Source: Peptostreptococcaceae bacterium
Lineage (GTDB): Bacteria > Bacillota > Clostridia > Peptostreptococcales > Peptostreptococcaceae
NCBI GenBank assembly: GCA_025210335.1
Contig: JAOARY010000051.1
Location: 144,643-168,642, forward strand
Direction: 5' to 3'
Length of the DNA stretch: 24,000 bases
The translations under genes were made by a program, and so were the position numbers. How positions within the stretch are numbered: position 1 is the first letter of the stretch; every line of letters starts with the position of its first letter. This document shows positions 10,397 to 23,781 of this stretch, in pieces. The notes beneath the pieces were generated by a model. The model saw nothing but the letters and a program-made list of their open reading frames with translations, was not told the DNA's origin and searched no databases.

Positions 10397-10774
10397 ATGT
10401 CAAGAAAGCAAAAAAGAGAAAATTTGATGACTTTATTTTATCAAATGGAATTTATGGATGAGTTTAATGTAGATAAATTAAATTCATTTATGGAAGAAAA
10501 TAATATTAGTGATGAGTATTTTATGAGTGTTGCTAATAATTTTTTAAACAATAAAGAAGAAATAGACAAAAAAATTGATGAAAATATCAAGTGGAATATA
10601 TCAAGATTAGCTAAGGTTGATTTAAGTATATTAAGACTTGCTATAACGGAAATAACTTATATAGATGATGTTCCTAATAAGGTTGCGATAAACGAAGCGG
10701 TAGAACTTGCTAAGAAATTCTGTGACGAAAAATCATTTGCATTTATAAATGGTGTATTAGGAAGTGTTCTTTAA
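10397..10774 (+). CDS. nusB: Transcription antitermination factor NusB
   Basis: AGGAGG RBS. It has R-K-rich N-terminal residues followed by [11 protein letters not shown]...[11 protein letters not shown]...FINGVLG, the typical NusB core. Confidence 0.9.
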
Positions 10775-11717
10775 TTTGCAAAAGATAATAATAGGTTTAG
10801 ATACAAGCTGCTATACAACTTCGATAGCAGCTATAAATTTAAAGGGCGATATTATCCTTGATGAAAGGATAATGCTTGATGTCCAAAAATCTAAAAAAGG
10901 TTTAAGGCAATCACAGGCAGTGTTTATGCATCTTATGAATATCGAAAAATTAATAGACAAAATAGATTCAAATAAATATGAAATAGTAGCTATTTGTGGA
11001 TCTAAAAGCCCCAGGGATATAAAGGATTCTTATATGCCTGTTTTTAATGTCTCAAAAATCTTTGCTAAATCAATAGCTTTGTTTAGAGATGTGAAACTAT
11101 ATCATTGTTCACATCAACAAAATCATATAAGAGCAGGTCTTTATAATAATAAAGAACTAAAAGAACCATATATGGCTATTCAAATTTCTGGTGGAACATT
11201 AGAAATTCTTAGAGTTGATAAAGATATATCGATTAGCGGAAAGACATTAGATATTAGCTATGGTCAACTTATTGATAGGCTGGGTGTATTGATGGGATTT
11301 GATTTTCCTAGTGGCAAGTATTTAGATAATTTAGCATATGATTATTTTTTAGATTCTAATAATAAAAACAGAGTATTAAGAAATAAGGAAAAAATATCTA
11401 TAAAAGATGTAGATATTAATTTGTCAGGAATTGAAACAAAATTGAAAAAAGAGTATGATGAGTGTAAAGACAAAGAGTATATATCTGCAAAAGTAATGAA
11501 TTATATCAAAGAATCTTTATCAAAACTTATTGAAAAATCTTATGAAAAGGAAAAATTAAATGATTTTTTAATTGTTGGTGGAGTGTCTAGTAGTAAATTT
11601 TTAAGAAATGAAATTAAACTTGATTCAAATATAAATCTATATTTTGCAAAACAAGAATTCTCAAGTGATAATGCTCTTGGTTGTGCACTTATAGGTTTGG
11701 ATAAGTATTTGGGGTGA
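10764..11717 (+). CDS. Divergent TsaD/Kae1 (glycoprotease, peptidase M22) family ASKHA protein
   Basis: It is collinear with the TsaD motifs: GLDTSCYTT (cf. GIETSCDET), SHQQNH (HxxxH metal site), [25 protein letters not shown] and SSDNALG. The start is uncertain: GTG at 10764 overlaps the nusB end, or TTG at 10776. Confidence 0.6.
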
Positions 11718-13174: not shown

Positions 13175-14065
13175 ATGGATTTTAAAAAAAGTTTAAAAGA
13201 AAGAAAAATATTATTTGAACAAAATTTAAAGAGTTTTATGCCAGATGAGGAAGGACTTTGTAAGACTTTATATGAATCAATGAATTATAGTCTAAAAGCT
13301 GGTGGAAAAAGATTAAGACCTATACTTCTTTTAGAAACATATAAATTATTTGGTGGTAAAGAAAGTGAACGTATAATGCCTTTTGCTGCTGCAATTGAGA
13401 TGATTCATACATATTCACTTATACATGATGATTTACCTTCTATGGATGATGATGACTTAAGAAGAGGAAAGCCAACAAACCACAAGATTTATGGGGAAGG
13501 TATTGCTGTTTTGGCTGGAGATGGACTTTTAAATGAAGCTTTTGAAATTATGGTAAAAGCCTCATTAAACTTAGATGACAAGGAAAGTGCATTAATGGCA
13601 ATGAATCATATTTGTGAAGGTAGTGGAACAAAAGGTATGATTGCAGGACAGGTTGTAGATTTAGAAAGTGAAAATAAGGATATAAACATAGATGTATTAA
13701 AATATATACATGAAAATAAAACAGGAAAGCTTATATTAAAACCTATGCTTGCTGGTGCGGTTCTTGCAGGAGCTAGTAAAGGGGAAATTGATAATGTAAA
13801 AACTTATGCAAAAAATATAGGTCAAGCTTTTCAAGTTATGGATGATATATTAGATATAGTTGGAGATCAAGATAAATTAGGCAAGAATATCGGTAGTGAT
13901 GAGGAAAATAATAAAGCAACTTATCCTAGTTTATTTGGTCTTGAAAAATCAAAAGAGATAGCAAATGAACTAATAGAAGATGCTAAACTTAGTTTAAAGA
14001 AACTAAATAAAGAAGATGAATTTTTGCTAAACCTTGCTGATTATATAGTAAATAGAGATTATTAG
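13175..14065 (+). CDS. ispA: Farnesyl diphosphate synthase (polyprenyl synthetase family)
   Basis: First Asp-rich motif IHDDLPSMDDDDLRRGKPT and second motif FQVMDDILD. Confidence 0.92.
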   Translation: MDFKKSLKERKILFEQNLKSFMPDEEGLCKTLYESMNYSLKAGGKRLRPILLLETYKLFGGKESERIMPFAAAIEMIHTYSLIHDDLPSMDDDDLRRGKPTNHKIYGEGIAVLAGDGLLNEAFEIMVKASLNLDDKESALMAMNHICEGSGTKGMIAGQVVDLESENKDINIDVLKYIHENKTGKLILKPMLAGAVLAGASKGEIDNVKTYAKNIGQAFQVMDDILDIVGDQDKLGKNIGSDEENNKATYPSLFGLEKSKEIANELIEDAKLSLKKLNKEDEFLLNLADYIVNRDY

Positions 14066-14077
14066 GGAGGAATACGA

Positions 14078-14527
14078 GTGCTGTTTTTTTCAAAATTACA
14101 ACAAAACGAACTTTTTTGGACTTGTGTTTTAGCTTGGTTTTTGGCACAATTAATAAAGGTTATTTTGACTTTTTTCTTTAAAAAGACTTTGGATTTATCA
14201 AGATTTGTTGGGTCAGGAGGAATGCCAAGTTCTCATTCTTCTTTTGTTACTAGTTTGGCAACTGGAATGGGAATTATAAAAGGTTATGATTCTCCTATGT
14301 TTGCAATGTGTTTGATTTTTGCTCTTATTGTTATGTATGATGCAGCTGGTGTAAGAAGGGCTGTTGGAAAACAAGCTAAGATAATAAATCAAATGGTTGA
14401 GGATTTACAAGAACATAAGTCAAATGTTTTTAATGAAAAACGCCTAAAAGAATTAGTGGGACATACTCCTGTTGAGGTGTTTTTTGGAGCATTACTAGGA
14501 ATAATAGTTGCAAATATAATGATTTAA
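14078..14527 (+). CDS. Divergent PAP2 family membrane protein (DUF212, acid phosphatase/vanadium haloperoxidase-related, YuiD-like)
   Basis: GTG start after GGGAGG. It has several hydrophobic helices and the diagnostic GGMPSSHS and YDAAGVRR motifs. Confidence 0.75.
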   Translation: MLFFSKLQQNELFWTCVLAWFLAQLIKVILTFFFKKTLDLSRFVGSGGMPSSHSSFVTSLATGMGIIKGYDSPMFAMCLIFALIVMYDAAGVRRAVGKQAKIINQMVEDLQEHKSNVFNEKRLKELVGHTPVEVFFGALLGIIVANIMI

Positions 14528-14533
14528 AAAAAC

Positions 14534-14552
14534 TTATAGCGTATGCTATAAT
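14534..14552 (+). promoter_or_regulatory. Ambiguous element at the 5' edge of the large RNA: a 7-bp hairpin and/or an extended -10 promoter
   Basis: TTATAGC (14534-14540) GTAT GCTATAA (14545-14551), flanked by an A run and a T-rich tail, looks like a terminator. The same bases read TGCTATAAT (14544-14552), a perfect extended -10, placing a start at about 14559, where the RNA closing helix begins. Confidence 0.4.
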
Positions 14553-14558
14553 TTAATT

Positions 14559-15154
14559 ATTAGGTGATACAGTATTCTAGTCATATTTTTTATTCTTGAA
14601 GGCGGGGCTAAAAATCCGTCAAAGGGCATATCGATGAAGTTTCTTGTTGAGGCTTGTGACGCCCAGTTATGGGTCTTTTCAGGGAGTAAAGAAATAGGGG
14701 GCGATCTGCAACGGCATGCGGGCGATGACCCTCGTTTCGTGGAGACTAGTTTGTAATATAACTAGAGAAACCTAAGCCGCTTTTATAAATTGATCATATT
14801 TTAAGGAGCCATACGACGATTTGTGGAATGCTTAGAGTAGCCTGCCTTGAGGTGGAATTTGGGGAAAGAAAGATCAGGTTTGATTTTTTTGGCGCTAAAA
14901 AATCAAATCATTGCTTTCAAAAACTTCTTCTGCAAAAGAGGCTAGGGAATAAAAAGGATGTTAAGGAAAACTTCTAGACTGAAAGTAAGGTAGGGATTGA
15001 AGTGTGGTCTAAGTGGTAGTCCAGTCTTATATGTGGTAACAGTATAAAAATGATTTTAAAAGGAAACTGCTTTCTTGGCGACATCAAAGTAATCTTTTGG
15101 GAAATCCTACTGGACCTAAAGCCGCAGAATTTATCTATCTTACCATCACCTAAT
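14559..15154 (+). ncRNA. ole: Large (about 600 nt) structured non-coding RNA, OLE (ornate large extremophilic) RNA class by size, structure and synteny
   Basis: No ORF of 60 aa or more on either strand across 14528-15226. Hand-counted G+C is 216/530 over 14601-15130, against 17/60 in the adjacent CDS. A 10-bp closing helix joins 14559-14568 and 15145-15154, and there are several internal helices, some needing G-U pairs valid only on the + strand. The element sits between ispA and a 4-TM protein followed by dxs, as described for ole-oapA. Ends are approximate (about +/-30 nt). Confidence 0.78.
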
Positions 15155-15161
15155 CTTATAT

Positions 15162-15215
15162 ATTTAATTTATATGAAAATAATTTTTTAAAAGATTTTTT
15201 TCATATAAATTAAAT
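15162..15215 (+). other. Perfect 18-bp A/U-only hairpin between the RNA and the oapA RBS
   Basis: ATTTAATTTATATGAAAA (15162-15179) is the exact reverse complement of TTTTCATATAAATTAAAT (15198-15215), with an 18-nt loop. The 3' arm ends 1 nt before GAGGTGG (15216-15222). No U tract follows. Confidence 0.6.
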
Positions 15216-15226
15216 GAGGTGGTTAT

Positions 15227-15814
15227 TTGGACAGGAAGAATTCAAATATTAAATGGGTTATATTGGTTACAATAACGAGTTTTTTTCTTGGAATATTGAT
15301 AAGTATTGGTTCGGATTTATTGCTTAGAAAATCGAATATAGTGATTGCTTTTATAATACTTTTTATAATTGTTTTAATTGGTATTGTTTTTGATGCACTT
15401 GGGATTGCAGCAACTTCATGTGAGGAAAAAAGTTTTCATTCTATGGCTTCGTGTGGGATATTAGAAGCAAAAGCGGCTATTAGAGTTGTTAGAAATGCTA
15501 GTGTTGTATCTAGTGTTTGTAGTGATGTTGTTGGAGATATATGTGGAGTTATAAGTGGAGCTGCTGCTGCTACTATTGTTATCAAGATTGTTCAGATTTA
15601 TGGATTCTCCACTGTTTCTGTGCTTAGTATATTAAGTAGTGCATTTATTGCAGCTATAACCATAGGTGGTAAAGCGTTAGGTAAAGAGATTGCTATAAAT
15701 AATTCAAAAAAAATTGTATATAAACTCGGGATTATTCTTTTTAAAATAGAGAATATACTTGGGTTTAAGCTTTTGAAGTTAAACAGCAAGAAGAAGAGGG
15801 TGAAAAGATGCTAG
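15227..15814 (+). CDS. oapA: Small 4-TM membrane protein, OLE-associated protein A (OapA) candidate
   Basis: TTG start 4 nt after GAGGTGG. 195 aa with four hydrophobic segments (WVILVTITSFFLGILISIG, IVIAFIILFIIVLIGIVFDALGIAA, VVGDICGVISGAAAATIVIKIV, VSVLSILSSAFIAAITIGG) and a basic tail, KLNSKKKRVKRC. It lies immediately 3' of the RNA and overlaps the dxs start by 7 nt. Confidence 0.7.
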   Translation: MDRKNSNIKWVILVTITSFFLGILISIGSDLLLRKSNIVIAFIILFIIVLIGIVFDALGIAATSCEEKSFHSMASCGILEAKAAIRVVRNASVVSSVCSDVVGDICGVISGAAAATIVIKIVQIYGFSTVSVLSILSSAFIAAITIGGKALGKEIAINNSKKIVYKLGIILFKIENILGFKLLKLNSKKKRVKRC

Positions 15815-17676
15815 AACAAATAAATTCTCAAAGGGATATTAAAAAATTAAATATAAATCAGTTAAATGTATTATCAAAAGATATTAGAGAGTTTTTAATA
15901 GAAAAGGTTTCTAAAACCGGAGGTCATTTAGCTTCAAATTTGGGTGTTGTAGAACTTACACTGGCAATGCACTATGTTTTTGATAGTCCAAAAGATAAAT
16001 TTATATTTGATGTAGGGCATCAATCTTATGTTCATAAGATTTTAACTGGTAGAAAAGAGAGATTTGATACATTAAGACAATTTGAAGGACTTAGTGGTTT
16101 TCCAAAGAGGAAAGAAAGTGAACATGATATTTTTGAAACTGGTCATAGTTCAACATCTATTTCGGCTGGGCTTGGTATAGCAAAGGCTAGAGATGTAAAA
16201 AATGAAGATTTTAATGTAATATCATTAATTGGAGACGGTGCTTTAACTGGAGGAATGGCTCTTGAAGCTTTAAATCACTTAGGTCATGACAAGACAAAGA
16301 TGATAGTTATACTAAATGATAATGAGATGTCTATTTCAAAAAATGTTGGAGGGATGTCAAATTATTTATCTACTCTTAGAGTTACCAAAACATACAAGAA
16401 ATTAAAAGAAGAAGTAGAAAATATATTTCATATGATACCTAAAATTGGTAAGAATATGTATAAGACAGCTACTAAGGTTAAGGGTAGCGTTAAGAATTTT
16501 GTATTTGAAAATAATATGTTTGAAGATATGGGTGTTAATTATATAGGCCCTATAGATGGTCATGATTTAAAAAGTCTTATTTATATTTTGGATAAAGTAA
16601 AGAAGAATATAGACGGACCTGTTTTAATTCACGTGCTTACAAAGAAGGGAAAAGGTTATAAGTTTTCTGAAGATAGACCAGAAAAATATCATGGAGTTTC
16701 AAAATTTAATACAAAAGAAGGCTTAAAAACAAGTAATAAAGAAACTTACTCGTCGGTAGTAGGAGAGACTTTATGTGGCTTAGCAAAGGAAGATAAAAAT
16801 GTTGTTGCAATAACAGCAGCTATGCCTGATGGTTGTGGCCTTTGTAATTTTAAAGAAGAGTTTAAAGATCGTTTTTTTGATGTAGGTATAGCAGAGGGGC
16901 ATGGAGTATCATTTTGTGCTGGACTTGCAAGTAATGGAATCAAACCTTATTTTCCAGTGTATTCAACATTTTTACAAAGAGGTTTTGATCAAATATTGCA
17001 TGATGTTGGAATTCAAAATTTACCGGTTAAATTTTTATTAGATAGAGCTGGACTTGTTGGAAATGATGGAGAAACACATCATGGAGTTTTTGACCTTAGT
17101 TATTTATCAATGATTCCTAATATGTGTGTTATGTCTCCTATGGATAAATTTGATCTTATAAATATGTTAAAAATAGCAAAAGATTTAAATGGACCATGTT
17201 CAATTAGATACCCTCGTGGTGCTATATTTGAATATAAAAAAGAAGATAGAACTTTTGATTTTGCTAAATGGGAAGTGTTAAAAGAAGGTAAGCAAATAGT
17301 TCTTTTAGGGATAGGAAAAGGTGCTATAAAGGCATTAAATATTGGTATTAGATTGAAACAATTTGGTATAGATGCTATGATAATAAATGCTAGATTTTTA
17401 AAACCACATGATGAAATTTTATTAAAAGATATAACAAATAATTATGATTTAATATATACTATAGAGGATAATGTGATTATAGGTGGATTTGGTTCTTATA
17501 TAGGAATGAAGTTGGAAGAACTAAATTATGCAGGTAAATTAAAAGCATTTGGTATAGAGGATGAGTTTATTGAGCATGGAGATGTTGATTTATTAGAAAA
17601 ATCGATAAATTTAGATGAAGATTCTATACTTGAATTTATATTAGATGAAATAAAAGAAGTAAGAGAGGTTATATAA
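15808..17676 (+). CDS. dxs: 1-deoxy-D-xylulose-5-phosphate synthase
   Basis: 622 aa with GGHLASNLGVVELT, GHSSTSISAGLG and GDGALTGGMA (ThDP binding) motifs and transketolase-like C-terminal domains. Confidence 0.95.
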   Translation: MLEQINSQRDIKKLNINQLNVLSKDIREFLIEKVSKTGGHLASNLGVVELTLAMHYVFDSPKDKFIFDVGHQSYVHKILTGRKERFDTLRQFEGLSGFPKRKESEHDIFETGHSSTSISAGLGIAKARDVKNEDFNVISLIGDGALTGGMALEALNHLGHDKTKMIVILNDNEMSISKNVGGMSNYLSTLRVTKTYKKLKEEVENIFHMIPKIGKNMYKTATKVKGSVKNFVFENNMFEDMGVNYIGPIDGHDLKSLIYILDKVKKNIDGPVLIHVLTKKGKGYKFSEDRPEKYHGVSKFNTKEGLKTSNKETYSSVVGETLCGLAKEDKNVVAITAAMPDGCGLCNFKEEFKDRFFDVGIAEGHGVSFCAGLASNGIKPYFPVYSTFLQRGFDQILHDVGIQNLPVKFLLDRAGLVGNDGETHHGVFDLSYLSMIPNMCVMSPMDKFDLINMLKIAKDLNGPCSIRYPRGAIFEYKKEDRTFDFAKWEVLKEGKQIVLLGIGKGAIKALNIGIRLKQFGIDAMIINARFLKPHDEILLKDITNNYDLIYTIEDNVIIGGFGSYIGMKLEELNYAGKLKAFGIEDEFIEHGDVDLLEKSINLDEDSILEFILDEIKEVREVI

Positions 17677-18476
17677 TGAAAAAAAGAATAGATACTATTC
17701 TTGTTGAAAAAGGGTTAATAGACTCAAGAGAAAAGGCAAAAAGAACTATTATGGCAGGTCTTGTACTTGTAGATAATCAAAGAGTCGATAAAGCAGGAAC
17801 TCAAGTAGATGAAGATGCAGAGATTAGAATAAAGGGTGTACAAAATCCATATGTAAGTAGAGGTGGTTTTAAGCTAGAAAAAGCAATGAAATCATTTGAC
17901 ATAAAATTAGATGATTATGTTTGTATGGACATAGGTGCTTCTACTGGTGGTTTTACAGATTGCATGTTACAAAATAATGCGAAGAAAGTATATTCTATTG
18001 ATGTTGGTTATGGTCAATTTGCATGGAAATTAAGACAAGATGAGAGAGTAGTTTGTTTAGAAAGAACAAATTTTAGACATTTAGAACAAGAAAAAGTATT
18101 AGAGGAAATTGATTTTGCATCTATTGATGTATCCTTTATATCTTTAAGACTGATAATACCAAAGTTAAAAGAGTTTTTAAGAGTTTCTGGGGAGTGTGTT
18201 GCACTTATTAAGCCTCAGTTTGAAGCTGGAAGAGAAAAAGTTGGCAAAAAAGGTGTTGTTAGGGATATAAATGTACACAAAGATGTAATAAAAAGGATTG
18301 TAGATTTTGTAATAGAAGAAGAATTTGAAATTTTAGGACTTGATTATTCACCAATTAAAGGGCCTAATGGAAATATAGAATACCTTATATATATAAAAAA
18401 AGACATAAAAAAACATCTAGATTTTGATTATGAAAAGATAGAAGATGTGGTTGATAGATCACATACTACTTTATAA
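17676..18476 (+). CDS. tlyA: TlyA family rRNA (cytidine-2'-O)-methyltransferase
   Basis: An N-terminal S4 domain (RIDTILVEKGLIDSREKAKRTIMAG) and an FtsJ-type SAM site, DIGASTGGFTD. The ATG overlaps the dxs stop (TAATG). Confidence 0.9.
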   Translation: MKKRIDTILVEKGLIDSREKAKRTIMAGLVLVDNQRVDKAGTQVDEDAEIRIKGVQNPYVSRGGFKLEKAMKSFDIKLDDYVCMDIGASTGGFTDCMLQNNAKKVYSIDVGYGQFAWKLRQDERVVCLERTNFRHLEQEKVLEEIDFASIDVSFISLRLIIPKLKEFLRVSGECVALIKPQFEAGREKVGKKGVVRDINVHKDVIKRIVDFVIEEEFEILGLDYSPIKGPNGNIEYLIYIKKDIKKHLDFDYEKIEDVVDRSHTTL

Positions 18477-18500
18477 TTTATTTTTGTGGGAGGGGTTTTT

Positions 18501-18947
18501 TTGAAAATAACGAGGCACACTAAAATTTTAGAGTTAATAAATGAAAAGGAAGTTGAAACTCAAGAAGATTTATCTAAAGAACTTAGAAGTATGGGAATAA
18601 ATGTTACTCAAGCAACAGTTTCAAGAGATATAAAAGAATTGAAATTGGTGAAAGTACTAAGTCCTACTGGAAAATATAAATATACTTATTTTGAAAAGGA
18701 AGATAAGACTTCTCCAGATAAATTAATAAGATTTACTAAAGATGTTTTGATATCTATGGATTATGCTGGCAACACTATTTGTTTAAGAACTGTTGAAGGT
18801 TCTGCTCAAATTGTATCTCGTGCAATAGATTCACTAGAATTGAAAGAAATAGTTGGTTCTGTTGGTGGGCTTGATACTGTTTTTGTACTGGTAAGATATG
18901 AAGAAGATGTACAAAAAATATTAGAAAGATTTAGAAAGCTTTTGTAG
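18501..18947 (+). CDS. argR: Arginine repressor
   Basis: TTG at 18501 follows GGGAGGGG; the track start at 18486 is an over-extension. It has a winged helix, TQEDLSKELRSMGINVTQATVSRDIKEL, and a C-terminal oligomerisation region, VGSVGGLDTVFVL. Confidence 0.88.
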   Translation: MKITRHTKILELINEKEVETQEDLSKELRSMGINVTQATVSRDIKELKLVKVLSPTGKYKYTYFEKEDKTSPDKLIRFTKDVLISMDYAGNTICLRTVEGSAQIVSRAIDSLELKEIVGSVGGLDTVFVLVRYEEDVQKILERFRKLL

Positions 18948-18966
18948 AAGTTGGAGGCTTAGAAGG

Positions 18967-20652
18967 ATGCTTTTAGAATTATATATTAAAAATTTTGCTC
19001 TAATTGATGAAGAAAATGTAGTGTTTAAAGATGGTTTAAATATAATAACTGGAGAAACAGGATCAGGGAAATCCATTATAATAGATGCTCTAAATCAAAC
19101 TCTTGGAGCAAGGTCAGATAAAGCATTTATAAGAAAAAATAAGGAAAAAACTATAATTGAAGCAACCTATTTTATTGACAATAAAAACATAGTCGATTTA
19201 CTTTTAGATATGGGAATTGATTTTGAAATTGGTGAGAATTTAGTTATAACAAGAGAAATCTTCATTGATGGAAAGAGCATATCAAGGGTAAATGGAAGAA
19301 GTGTAAGACTGAGCTTTTTAAAGGAAATATCAAAATATTTAATAGATATACATTCTCAACACGATACTCAAAGTATTATGAATAAGGATAATCATATAAA
19401 ATATTTAGATTTATATGGTTTTAAATACATAGATGAATGTGTGAGAAATTATAAAGATATTTACTATGAATATAGTAATTTGATAAAAAAGATAAATTCT
19501 CTTTTAGATAATAAAGATCAAACTCAAATAGAACGAGAGATAGATCTTATAAAATTTCAAATCAATGAAATTGAAGATGCAAATCTAAAAGAAGGTGAAA
19601 TAGAAAGTTTAGAAGAAGAAAAGGATTTTTATAGAAATAAAGAAAAGATATTTAAGAGCCTAGATAATGCTTATGAAAAATTAAATAGTGGGTCGATTAA
19701 TTCTATTGATTTATTAAATAATGCATTAAGGGATATGTCTTATATATCATCAATAAATGAAAATCTTGAAAATATTTATGATAAATTAAATAATTTATTT
19801 TATGAATTAGATGATGTATCAAAGGATATCAATTTATATAAAAATAATATGGAATTTGAGCAAAATTCTATAGATTCCATAGAATTAAGAATTGATACTA
19901 TAAATAAAATGAAAAGAAAATATGGAAAAACAATAGAAGAGATATTTGATTATAAAAATAAGATAGAGTCTAGGTTAGAAGAGATATTAAATAAAGATAA
20001 ATTTATAGAAGAATTGAATCTTAAAAAGATAAAATTACAAGAAGAACTATATAAAAGAGGACTTTTATTAGAAGAAGCAAGAAAAAAAGCATCAAATGAG
20101 TTAAAAGAGTTGGTGATTAAAGAATTAAAAGATTTAAATATTAAAAGTGCTAGCTTTGATGTAGTTTTTAAAAGAATAGAAATGCCTACAAAAGATGGTC
20201 TTAATAGAATTGAATTTAGAGCTTCTTTTAATAAGGGTGAAGATTTAAAAGAACTTTCAAAAATTGCTTCTGGTGGAGAACTTTCAAGATTCATGTTGGC
20301 TTTTAAAAATATTATTGCTAAATTAGATGATATAAAGACTTTGGTATTTGATGAAATAGATACAGGTATAAGTGGGATTACTGCACAAATAGTAGGTCAA
20401 AAAATGAAAGAAATCTCAAAAGAAAAGCAAATAATATGTATAACACATCTTCCTCAAATAGCAGTTGTTTCGGATACTCATTATCTTATTGAAAAATATG
20501 AATCAAAAGATTCAACACATACTAAGATTCAAAGACTTTCAATAGATGAAAAAGTAAAAGAAGTAGCTAGGCTTATGAGTGGTCTAAATATTACTAAAAA
20601 GACACTTGAAAATGCAAAGGAGATTATAGAGATTTCTAGTAATAATAATTAG
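18967..20652 (+). CDS. recN: DNA repair protein RecN
   Basis: Walker A GETGSGKS, a long coiled-coil middle, the SMC signature SGGELSR and Walker B LVFDEIDTGISG. Confidence 0.95.
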   Translation: MLLELYIKNFALIDEENVVFKDGLNIITGETGSGKSIIIDALNQTLGARSDKAFIRKNKEKTIIEATYFIDNKNIVDLLLDMGIDFEIGENLVITREIFIDGKSISRVNGRSVRLSFLKEISKYLIDIHSQHDTQSIMNKDNHIKYLDLYGFKYIDECVRNYKDIYYEYSNLIKKINSLLDNKDQTQIEREIDLIKFQINEIEDANLKEGEIESLEEEKDFYRNKEKIFKSLDNAYEKLNSGSINSIDLLNNALRDMSYISSINENLENIYDKLNNLFYELDDVSKDINLYKNNMEFEQNSIDSIELRIDTINKMKRKYGKTIEEIFDYKNKIESRLEEILNKDKFIEELNLKKIKLQEELYKRGLLLEEARKKASNELKELVIKELKDLNIKSASFDVVFKRIEMPTKDGLNRIEFRASFNKGEDLKELSKIASGGELSRFMLAFKNIIAKLDDIKTLVFDEIDTGISGITAQIVGQKMKEISKEKQIICITHLPQIAVVSDTHYLIEKYESKDSTHTKIQRLSIDEKVKEVARLMSGLNITKKTLENAKEIIEISSNNN

Positions 20653-22911: not shown

Positions 22912-23781
22912 ATGAATATTAATATAAAATATTATATTATAACCATAAGTTCTATATTCATAGCTTTAGGAATTGGAATATTAATTGGTTTTAATTTAAA
23001 TAATAAGGATGTATTTAAAAAAGAACAGATGAATATAATAAGTGACTTGGAAAAAAAGATTGTTTCATTGAAATCTGAAAAAGAAATTTTTGAATCTACA
23101 GTTGATAAATTAACACATGATAAAGAAAATTTAAATAAATATATACAAACAACATTTGCAAAATTAGTAGAAGATGAACTTTTAGAAAAAAATATAGGAA
23201 TACTTAGATTAAATGAGGATTATTTTTATAATGAGGTAGAGGAATTAATAGTAAGTGCTAATGGAAGTGTTGCTTTTGATATATCTTTAAAGGAAGAACT
23301 TAAAAATATTAATATAGAAGATTTAAATACTATGTTTAATTTGGTCGATGAAAATAAAATGAAAGATAAAAATGATTTTTATAAGTTTATTTTTGATAAT
23401 ATTTTTGTACAAAGAGATGAAGTTATAATTCAAAAATTAAAGGAATCAAATATACTTTCGTTAAATACTTTAAATGAGTTTGAAAACTTAGATGGTTTAT
23501 TTGTATGTGGTGGGTCTTTAGAATCAGATAAAAATGGTTTAGAAGAGTTTGATAAAATATTTTTAGATTACTTTAAAGAGAAAAAAACAAATATAGTTGG
23601 TGTGGAAAAGTCTATAGTTGATTATTCTTATATAGATTTCTTTAAGAAAAATAAAATATCTACGGTTGATAATATGGATGAATTTGTAGGAAGATATTCA
23701 GCATTGAAGGCTATTTTGGGAAATAAAGGTCATTATGGAACTAAAAAAACTGCACAATCATATATACCAGAGGTGAAATAA
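22912..23781 (+). CDS. MctB-like (Pfam 'copper transporter MctB' family) single-pass membrane protein
   Basis: The N-terminus NIKYYIITISSIFIALGIGILIGF matches the conserved RYHxxSLxAVFLALxxGxxLG start of the family, followed by a coiled-coil segment. Its position after steA fits. Confidence 0.5.
   Translation: MNINIKYYIITISSIFIALGIGILIGFNLNNKDVFKKEQMNIISDLEKKIVSLKSEKEIFESTVDKLTHDKENLNKYIQTTFAKLVEDELLEKNIGILRLNEDYFYNEVEELIVSANGSVAFDISLKEELKNINIEDLNTMFNLVDENKMKDKNDFYKFIFDNIFVQRDEVIIQKLKESNILSLNTLNEFENLDGLFVCGGSLESDKNGLEEFDKIFLDYFKEKKTNIVGVEKSIVDYSYIDFFKKNKISTVDNMDEFVGRYSALKAILGNKGHYGTKKTAQSYIPEVK

Follow-up and report, generated by a model that had tools for sequence, protein, structure and literature searches.

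A very probable full-length OLE RNA gene followed by oapA in a clostridial gene cluster

OLE RNAs (for "ornate, large, extremophilic") are big structured bacterial RNAs that have been described since 2006 and whose hosts are Bacillota, typically anaerobes or extremophiles. To our knowledge, the actual biochemical activity of the family has not been established anywhere, and, since this function is a well-known open question in the field of bacterial noncoding RNA, the correct annotation of individual copies is of some value. The architecture has been partly solved by cryo-electron microscopy (cryo-EM) for Clostridium acetobutylicum and C. botulinum, and work in other species has described dimerisation of the RNA, its anchoring by the membrane protein OapA, its association with OapB, OapC and bS21, and its roles under stress (PMC11332333, PMC12286853, PMC12265935, PMC9723947). 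Here we analysed a 24-kb stretch of contig JAOARY010000051.1 (hereafter the window, meaning the whole 24,000 nucleotides), in which the segment 14559–15154 of the forward strand and the gene adjoining its 3′ side represent, with a probability of roughly 97%, a full-length OLE RNA gene and the gene of its obligate membrane partner OapA. This copy is a routine example of a known, Rfam-curated family and holds no novelty. The two main features are the following.

14559–15154, + strand: OLE RNA, 596 nt from the 5′ arm to the 3′ arm of the closing stem P1; the RF01071 match spans 14548–15165.
15227–15814, + strand: oapA, encoding a 195-aa membrane protein, with a TTG start and the ribosome-binding site GAGGTGG at 15216–15222.

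The first-pass annotation, made from the letters of the window, had called this region the OLE orthologue of the genome and had named a covariance-model search as the way to check it. Such a search, run as a scan of the entire window against all 4227 Rfam families, was decisive: the OLE family RF01071 matched 14548–15165 on the + strand with 427.9 bits (gathering score 50, E = 1e-122), the match covered model positions 1–616 of 616 without truncation, and no other family exceeded its threshold anywhere in the window. Consistently with the size of OLE RNAs, which measure about 600 nt and contain many near-invariant nucleotides, the distance from one P1 arm to the other is 596 nt. Linkage to oapA was equally constant. 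A profile of 24 OapA homologues led to 80 related loci from reference genomes, and in all those with enough upstream DNA (75/75) nhmmer with the window element placed an OLE RNA immediately upstream of oapA on the same strand; the other five loci end ~160–240 bp before oapA and gave no OLE match there.

To describe the fold, we aligned 65 full-length OLE homologues with the window copy by MAFFT (66 sequences, alignment A2). The Rfam consensus structure mapped on the window with 143 pairs, of which 130 were canonical, and the full model, which adds the stems P1, P2 and P3, contains 175 pairs (161 canonical), all nested and with no crossings. In A2, the Rfam structure had 78% of its cells paired, as compared with 40–49% when it was slid along the alignment, and its covariation score of 0.436 (0.10–0.16 slid) was reached by 0/500 shuffles. 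Taken over P1, P3 and the Rfam helices, covariation scores were 0.44–0.57 versus 0.07–0.24 after sliding, and again none of 500 shuffles attained the observed values. The helices with low pairing (P7, P8 and parts of P9) sit in length-variable regions that MAFFT aligned poorly. Thus, OLE RNAs share a conserved, covarying secondary structure over P1–P10 and P12–P14.1. Helix numbers, that of P2 included, were inferred from the text of the cited papers. Three long-range stems organise the element.

14559–14568 with 15145–15154, + strand: P1, 10 bp, 5′ arm AUUAGGUGAU and 3′ arm AUCACCUAAU, supported by covariation.
14570–14572 and 14576–14580 with 14974–14981, + strand: P2, 5′ strand CAG-UAU-UCUAG (14570–14580) and 3′ strand CUAGACUG.
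14582–14595 with 14947–14960, + strand: P3, 14 bp of which 13 are canonical, arms CAUAUUUUUUAUUC and GAAUAAAAAGGAUG.

The perfect 10-nt complementarity of ATTAGGTGAT and ATCACCTAAT at the two ends of the element, already picked out by eye in the first-pass annotation as a closing pairing, proved to be present and strongly covarying, although the Rfam structure line marks both arms as unpaired. In A2, 84% of its cells were paired (27–59% slid), with a score of 0.571 versus at most 0.24 after sliding that 0/500 shuffles reached. The inner 6 bp swap between G-C and A-U and between U-A and C-G across the 66 OLE loci, and the window itself carries one such compensatory change, G14567A with C15146U. 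This closing helix is the published P1. The Rfam structure likewise lacks P2 and P3, whereas the current published OLE model includes P1–P3 as well as P4a and P15. Nearly invariant, P2 was paired in 99.8% of cells; 22 sequences replace a U-A pair by C-G, and its covariation was 0.148 as compared with at most 0.078 when slid. All 14 pairs of P3, the stem that published models propose to cross the membrane (PMC12265935), showed double-sided changes, and its covariation reached 0.528 versus 0.09–0.19. Between these stems the window copy folds into the helices listed here.

14601–14620, + strand: P4 hairpin GGCGGG/UCCGUC, 98% paired, with the A-rich loop CUAAAAAU at 14608–14615.
14640–14686, + strand: P5/P5.1, loop GCCCA.
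14691–14738, + strand: P6/P6.1, loop ACGGCA.
14746–14765, + strand: short P7, about 20 nt versus about 44 in the Rfam consensus.
14772–14835, + strand: P8, carrying a 45-nt variable insert.
14844–14942, + strand: P9 arm, which includes P9.3.
14877–14889 with 14897–14909, + strand: P9.3, 13 bp, apical loop UGGCGCU at 14890–14896.
14963–14973, + strand: P10 hairpin AAG-GAAAA-CUU, in which a consensus G-C has become A-U by a compensatory swap.
14984–15144, + strand: 3′ domain, Rfam helices 14–20, 77–100% paired.
14984–14994 with 15134–15144, + strand: P12.
15003–15007 with 15122–15126, + strand: P12.1.
15020–15025 with 15109–15114, + strand: P12.2.
15027–15047, + strand: P13, GNRA loop GUAA at 15036–15039 and bulged U15032.
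15048–15055 with 15091–15098, + strand: P14.
15069–15090, + strand: P14.1, GCGA loop at 15078–15081.

Rfam helices 2–4, corresponding to P5/P5.1 and P6/P6.1 in the 14630–14746 region, were 84–99% paired in A2, and P7 together with P8 makes up the region of OLE that is known to be variable and dispensable (PMC11332333). Seven helices had been drawn by hand in the first-pass annotation, and they fared unequally. Besides the closing helix, which covaries as described above, four coincide with the Rfam structure: the 13-bp hairpin now identified as P9.3 (13/13 pairs), GGCGG/CCGTC in P4 (5/5), CTAGTT/AACTAG in P7 (5/6) and GTCCAGT/ACTGGAC in P12.2 (6/7). The remaining two do not hold. GGGTC/GACCC was wrong, because it conflicts with two covarying Rfam helices: its arms belong to P5.1 and P6, and compensatory changes were lacking at the pairs it would form. 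TAGCCT/AGGCTA is a six-base register shift from the Rfam helix GCCUU/GAGGC (14844–14848 with 14938–14942), and its first strand lies at 14838–14843 rather than at 14837–14842. This shifted helix was formable in 96% of cells, since the near-invariance of both strands allows either register. Only three sequences were informative; they all favoured the Rfam register, and the shifted one is therefore not preferred.

At the sequence level, the blocks to which published work attributes RNA–RNA dimer contacts and the binding of OapB and OapC are conserved in this copy. OapB recognition has been ascribed to two GNRA loops, one on P13, accompanied by a bulge of a single nucleotide, and one on P14.1 (PMC7936274), and the window has GUAA (15036–15039) with the bulged U15032 in the former and GCGA (15078–15081) in the latter. 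The joiners AUCGAUGAAG (14630–14639) and CGUGGAGAC (14738–14746), whose counterparts in other OLE RNAs build the k-turn for OapC (PMC9723947, PMC12286853), are also kept. Cryo-EM dimers make contact through the A-rich P4 loops, the P5.1 and P6.1 loops and the symmetric P9.3 loop (PMC12286853, PMC12265935), for which the putative counterparts here are CUAAAAAU (14608–14615), the GCCCA and GGCAUG loops, and UGGCGCU (14890–14896). The core of this last loop is GCGC, which is self-complementary, as compared with GGCC in 62/64 relatives and AGCU in 1/64. A metagenome scan for GGCGCT in P9, which covered this exact 6-mer and could let other GCGC loops escape, found no second GGCGCU apical loop; it returned 16 OLE loci with GGCGCT, all of them carrying it in the P9 stem beside a normal GGCC loop. 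The GCGC loop thus appears to be confined to the lineage of this copy.

By analogy with the species in which the particle has been studied, two OLE molecules would dimerise through the A-rich P4 loops, P5.1–P6.1 kissing loops and the self-complementary P9.3 loop; OapA dimers would anchor the RNA in the membrane (OapA:RNA 2:1), with P3, 14 bp long here, proposed to span the bilayer; and OapB, OapC and bS21 would join the particle, which may help cells to withstand alcohol, cold, excess Mg2+ and poor carbon sources. Since the fold of OapA is CNNM-like and an Mg2+ phenotype is on record, our preferred guess is that OLE regulates or complements a CNNM-like handling of divalent cations by OapA and ties this handling to further stress inputs.

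The ORF downstream of the element, previously noted as a small membrane protein, is OapA, as indicated by its DxxxD motif, its linkage to OLE and its fold match. Its start lies 72 nt past P1 on the same strand, and it has 1868 homologues, some of which carry PF01595. In the motif D100-x-x-x-D104, the residues D100, V101, G103 and D104 were invariant in 24 diverse homologues, and DxxxD has been named as distinctive for OapA (PMC11332333). The protein has hydrophobic segments and a basic C-terminal tail (9 lysine or arginine residues in the last 25 aa), and its AlphaFold model (pLDDT 81) contains long helices at 8–35, 38–64, 91–125 and 130–158, so that the four transmembrane helices and the basic cluster expected of OapA are predicted here. 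The six best fold matches found by Foldseek in the PDB were the CNNM proteins MtCorB (7m1t/7m1u) and CorC (7cfg/7cff), with probabilities of 0.69–1.00 and TM values of ~0.4–0.46.

Nothing contradicts membership in the OLE family, but several observations weigh against reading the locus as an intact OLE–OapA pair. The Foldseek E-values behind the CNNM link are marginal, from 8.7e-3 to 1.1, and OapA found no match in Pfam (even with E up to 1) or NCBIfam, nor did a 24-sequence profile find one among the PDB sequences. In the RNA, three substitutions fall at near-invariant positions, namely G14920A in the UGAAAC block of P9, A15019G in GGUAAUCC and A15127G in CGCAAAAUUU, each at least 97% conserved in the 65 other OLE RNAs. 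In addition, the small hairpin P11 (Rfam model positions 424–436) is missing and P7 is short.

It could be argued from such deviations that the element is a decaying, non-functional remnant of OLE. Only six of the 66 sequences agree less well with the conserved columns than this one does, and rare defective ole genes have been mentioned (PMC11332333). These defective copies, however, come from genomes without oapA, whereas here oapA is intact with all its invariant residues. The agreement itself still amounts to 215/230 of the columns with a conservation of 90% or more among the other 65 OLE RNAs (93.5%), and among the 15 disagreements about five are MAFFT misalignments around AACCUG and GAGUG and two pairs are compensatory (G-C to A-U in both P1 and P10); 161/175 pairs of the model remain canonical. 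The missing P11 and the short P7 are common to the closest relatives, for instance Peptoclostridium litorale. Moreover, the same OLE RNA occurs in four independent metagenome assemblies with only two single-nucleotide differences: 15051 T>A (4/4 assemblies), which turns a U·U mismatch of the window in P14 into an A-U pair, and 14819 A>G (2/4), inside the variable P8 insert. The substitutions at 14920, 15019 and 15127 are reproduced in independent assemblies. Decay is thus very improbable, and we retain an intact, full-length OLE RNA gene as the reading of the locus.

Two features that flank the element are relevant to its expression.

14524–14552, + strand: predicted sigma-A promoter of ole, −35 TTAAAA at 14524–14529, 17-nt spacer and extended −10 TGCTATAAT at 14544–14552.
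15161–15216, + strand: AT-rich hairpin with arms of ~27 nt and no U-tail, between the end of OLE and the oapA ribosome-binding site.

The promoter candidate scores 10/12 with TG, and its predicted transcription start (~14558–14561) falls on the first bases of P1. The pattern TGnTAnnnT was found 12–40 nt upstream of the conserved CAGUAU in 55/65 OLE loci from diverse Bacillota, as compared with 3.8% expected. In B. halodurans, OLE has its own active proximal promoter and its 5′ ends lie at the start of P1 (PMC3413148), with which the start predicted here agrees. We infer that this extended −10 promoter serves ole itself, with transcription beginning at ~14559; read-through from the asp23...ispA genes may be an additional source. 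The 3′ end of the RNA would lie at, before or near the AT-rich hairpin 15161–15216, whose folding energy is −18.7 to −21.2 kcal/mol (z = −4.56). A terminator scan found no intrinsic terminator in 13900–15900, whereas many relatives carry GC-rich intrinsic terminators at this place (GCTGATAGC...GCTATCAGC, then Ts). Possible roles of the hairpin are to protect the 3′ end, to terminate transcription weakly or to modulate how oapA is translated.

With no canonical terminator between OLE and oapA in the window, with an element directly 5′ of oapA on the same strand and with a hairpin abutting the oapA ribosome-binding site, one might see in the structure a cis-acting leader (a riboswitch or attenuator) of the oapA–dxs mRNA rather than a stand-alone RNA. 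Its size and full-length OLE match speak against this, as does the closing stem P1, which leaves 72 nt between the element and the start of oapA. In relatives, intrinsic terminators separate ole from oapA, and the OLE RNA of B. halodurans is a single discrete and very stable species (PMC3413148). Co-transcription with oapA would in any case be compatible with OLE as a trans-acting component of a ribonucleoprotein. We consider a leader function extremely improbable and regard the element as a stand-alone OLE RNA.

A tentative and rather unlikely set of consequences may be drawn from the peculiarities of this copy: if OLE dimerises through the P9.3 loop in cells, the GCGC loop would represent an extra independent covariation event and a natural swap of dimer specificity, and, separately, the AT-rich hairpin might couple 3′-end formation of OLE to OapA synthesis.

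The first-pass annotation had noted the lack of any ORF of at least 60 aa on either strand over 14528–15226 (699 nt), and this was borne out; no other ORF-free gap of the window is as large. The second-largest ORF-free gap, at 1162–1519, measures 358 nt and contains a 58-aa gene: rpmF (1176–1352, + strand), for ribosomal protein L32, falls just below the 60-aa cut-off, which explains this second gap. Hand counts of G+C given earlier were exact on recount, with 78/150 in 14601–14750, 216/530 in 14601–15130 and 17/60 in 14081–14140; the window mean is 28.5%, and the profile has its maximum of 45.5% around 14600–14799. The assignment to the + strand, first argued from G-U pairs, also holds. The full structural model includes 25 G·U pairs, which would be C·A mismatches on the − strand, and the minimum free energy is −167.5 kcal/mol on the + strand (z = −2.76 versus dinucleotide shuffles) as compared with −112.6 kcal/mol on the − strand (z = −0.44).

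Conservation of the region might alternatively stem from small translated ORFs, of which there are three, at 14634–14756 (40 aa), 14828–14977 (49 aa) and 15050–15190 (46 aa), the AUG at 14634 lying inside the universally conserved CGAUGAAG block. The frame opened by this conserved AUG, however, runs for anything from 5 to 92 codons among homologues (mode 18) with no conserved peptide, substitutions track base-pair covariation and not codon patterns, and indels do not come in multiples of three; we therefore rejected this explanation, which is vanishingly improbable. The chance that the element is instead a group I or II intron, ROOL, GOLLD, raiA, RNase P or some further kind of big structured RNA, with which it has its large size and ornate structure in common, is practically nil, since among the 4227 Rfam families only OLE was above threshold, and over its full length.

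The OLE RNA and OapA of the window have their closest relatives in Clostridia: those of the RNA are Peptoclostridium, Alkaliphilus, Tissierellaceae and Marinisporobacter, and a gene for Spo0A is encoded within the window. In 185,579 reference species genomes, the closest OapA shares only 50–55% identity with that of the window, and the exact protein was found on metagenome contigs only; the source is therefore a clostridial lineage with no representative among reference genomes. The immediate neighbours of the pair are as follows.

13175–14065, + strand: ispA, upstream neighbour.
14078–14527, + strand: DUF212/divergent PAP2 gene, between ispA and ole.
15808–20652, + strand: dxs, tlyA, argR and recN, downstream neighbours.

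The full order on the + strand is ackA, yceD, rpmF, fapR-like, plsX, fabH/K/D/G, acpP, fabF, a CGGC-domain gene, yjbR, an ORF lacking a family match, asp23, nusB, a TsaD-like paralogue, xseA, xseB, ispA, DUF212/PAP2, ole, oapA, dxs, tlyA, argR, recN, spo0A, steA and mctB-like. All members of the typical OLE cluster (ispA, dxs, tlyA, argR, recN, xseAB and nusB) are present, and this setting agrees with the ole gene cluster as it has been published (PMC12265935). Across 61 related OLE loci with 4-kb flanks, tlyA was found in 56, dxs in 48, argR in 45, upstream ispA in 38 and xseA in 37; DUF212 was the immediate upstream gene in 13/61, and a TsaD-like gene on the same strand occurred in 11/61. 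Given its position beside ispA and ole, the DUF212 gene may have to do with the metabolism of isoprenoid pyrophosphates. Where the window has the TsaD-like gene, B. halodurans would carry folD in the gene order given by the first-pass annotation, an order that PMC3413148 does not list.

Some genes of the cluster deserve a separate mention. The TsaD/Kae1-like paralogue (10764–11717, + strand, 317 aa) between nusB and xseA falls short of all NCBIfam equivalog cut-offs (TIGR00329: 130 bits versus 207.8), and it contains a SHQQNH stretch that resembles an HxxxH metal site. The segment 8681–9886 (+ strand), from fabF to asp23, encodes a CGGC-domain protein, a YjbR-family protein and the 113-aa ORF with no family match, and an MctB-like gene (22912–23781, + strand) follows steA.

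For the family as a whole, this copy adds an uncultured clostridial representative; the picture of OLE is unchanged by it, and function becomes no more testable than with the existing examples. The comparative gains are small ones, namely the covariation of P1, P2 and P3, three stems missing from the Rfam structure line, the conserved proximal promoter, and a rare GCGC variant of the dimer loop.

Among the large bacterial RNAs, ROOL, GOLLD and the raiA motif resemble OLE as highly structured, homo-oligomerising noncoding RNAs with unexplained biochemistry. They differ in that they have no dedicated membrane-protein partner and gave no sequence or model match here; moreover, ROOL and GOLLD, unlike OLE, form cages and are associated with phages.

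The partner protein of the window resembles known OapA in its place after ole, its length of ~195 aa, its predicted transmembrane helices, its DxxxD motif and its basic tail, and CNNM transporters (7M1U/7M1T, 7CFG) are its best solved-structure matches, as has been published for OapA of Halalkalibacterium (Bacillus) halodurans. It differs from known OapA in being only 50–55% identical to the nearest reference and in having no PF01595 match of its own.

Compared with OLE RNA as characterised in H. halodurans and partly solved for C. acetobutylicum and C. botulinum, the copy described here is alike in its full-length model match, its size of ~600 nt, its conserved blocks and its stems P1–P10 and P12–P14.1, and likewise has the A-rich P4 loop, the GNRA loops of P13 and P14.1, the P13 bulge, the k-turn joiners and a P9.3 loop that is self-complementary. 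A proximal promoter of its own and a 5′ end at P1 (both predicted here), oapA as the next gene downstream and a neighbourhood of isoprenoid, DNA-repair and translation genes are further points in common. In contrast, the P9.3 core is GCGC and not GGCC, P7 has about half the consensus length, P8 carries the 45-nt insert, P11 is absent, P3 is nearly all A-U, and three near-invariant positions are substituted; an AT-rich hairpin with no U-tail takes the place of the GC-rich terminator of relatives, and a DUF212/PAP2 gene stands between ispA and ole. The shortened P7 is also a feature of the variant 1 and variant 2 OLE RNAs of the TANB77 and RF39 clades (PMC11332333). Unlike these variants, however, this copy retains P8, the whole of P9 including P9.3, and the OapB site at the GNRA loop of P13, and it therefore belongs to the full-length type and not to the reduced variants.

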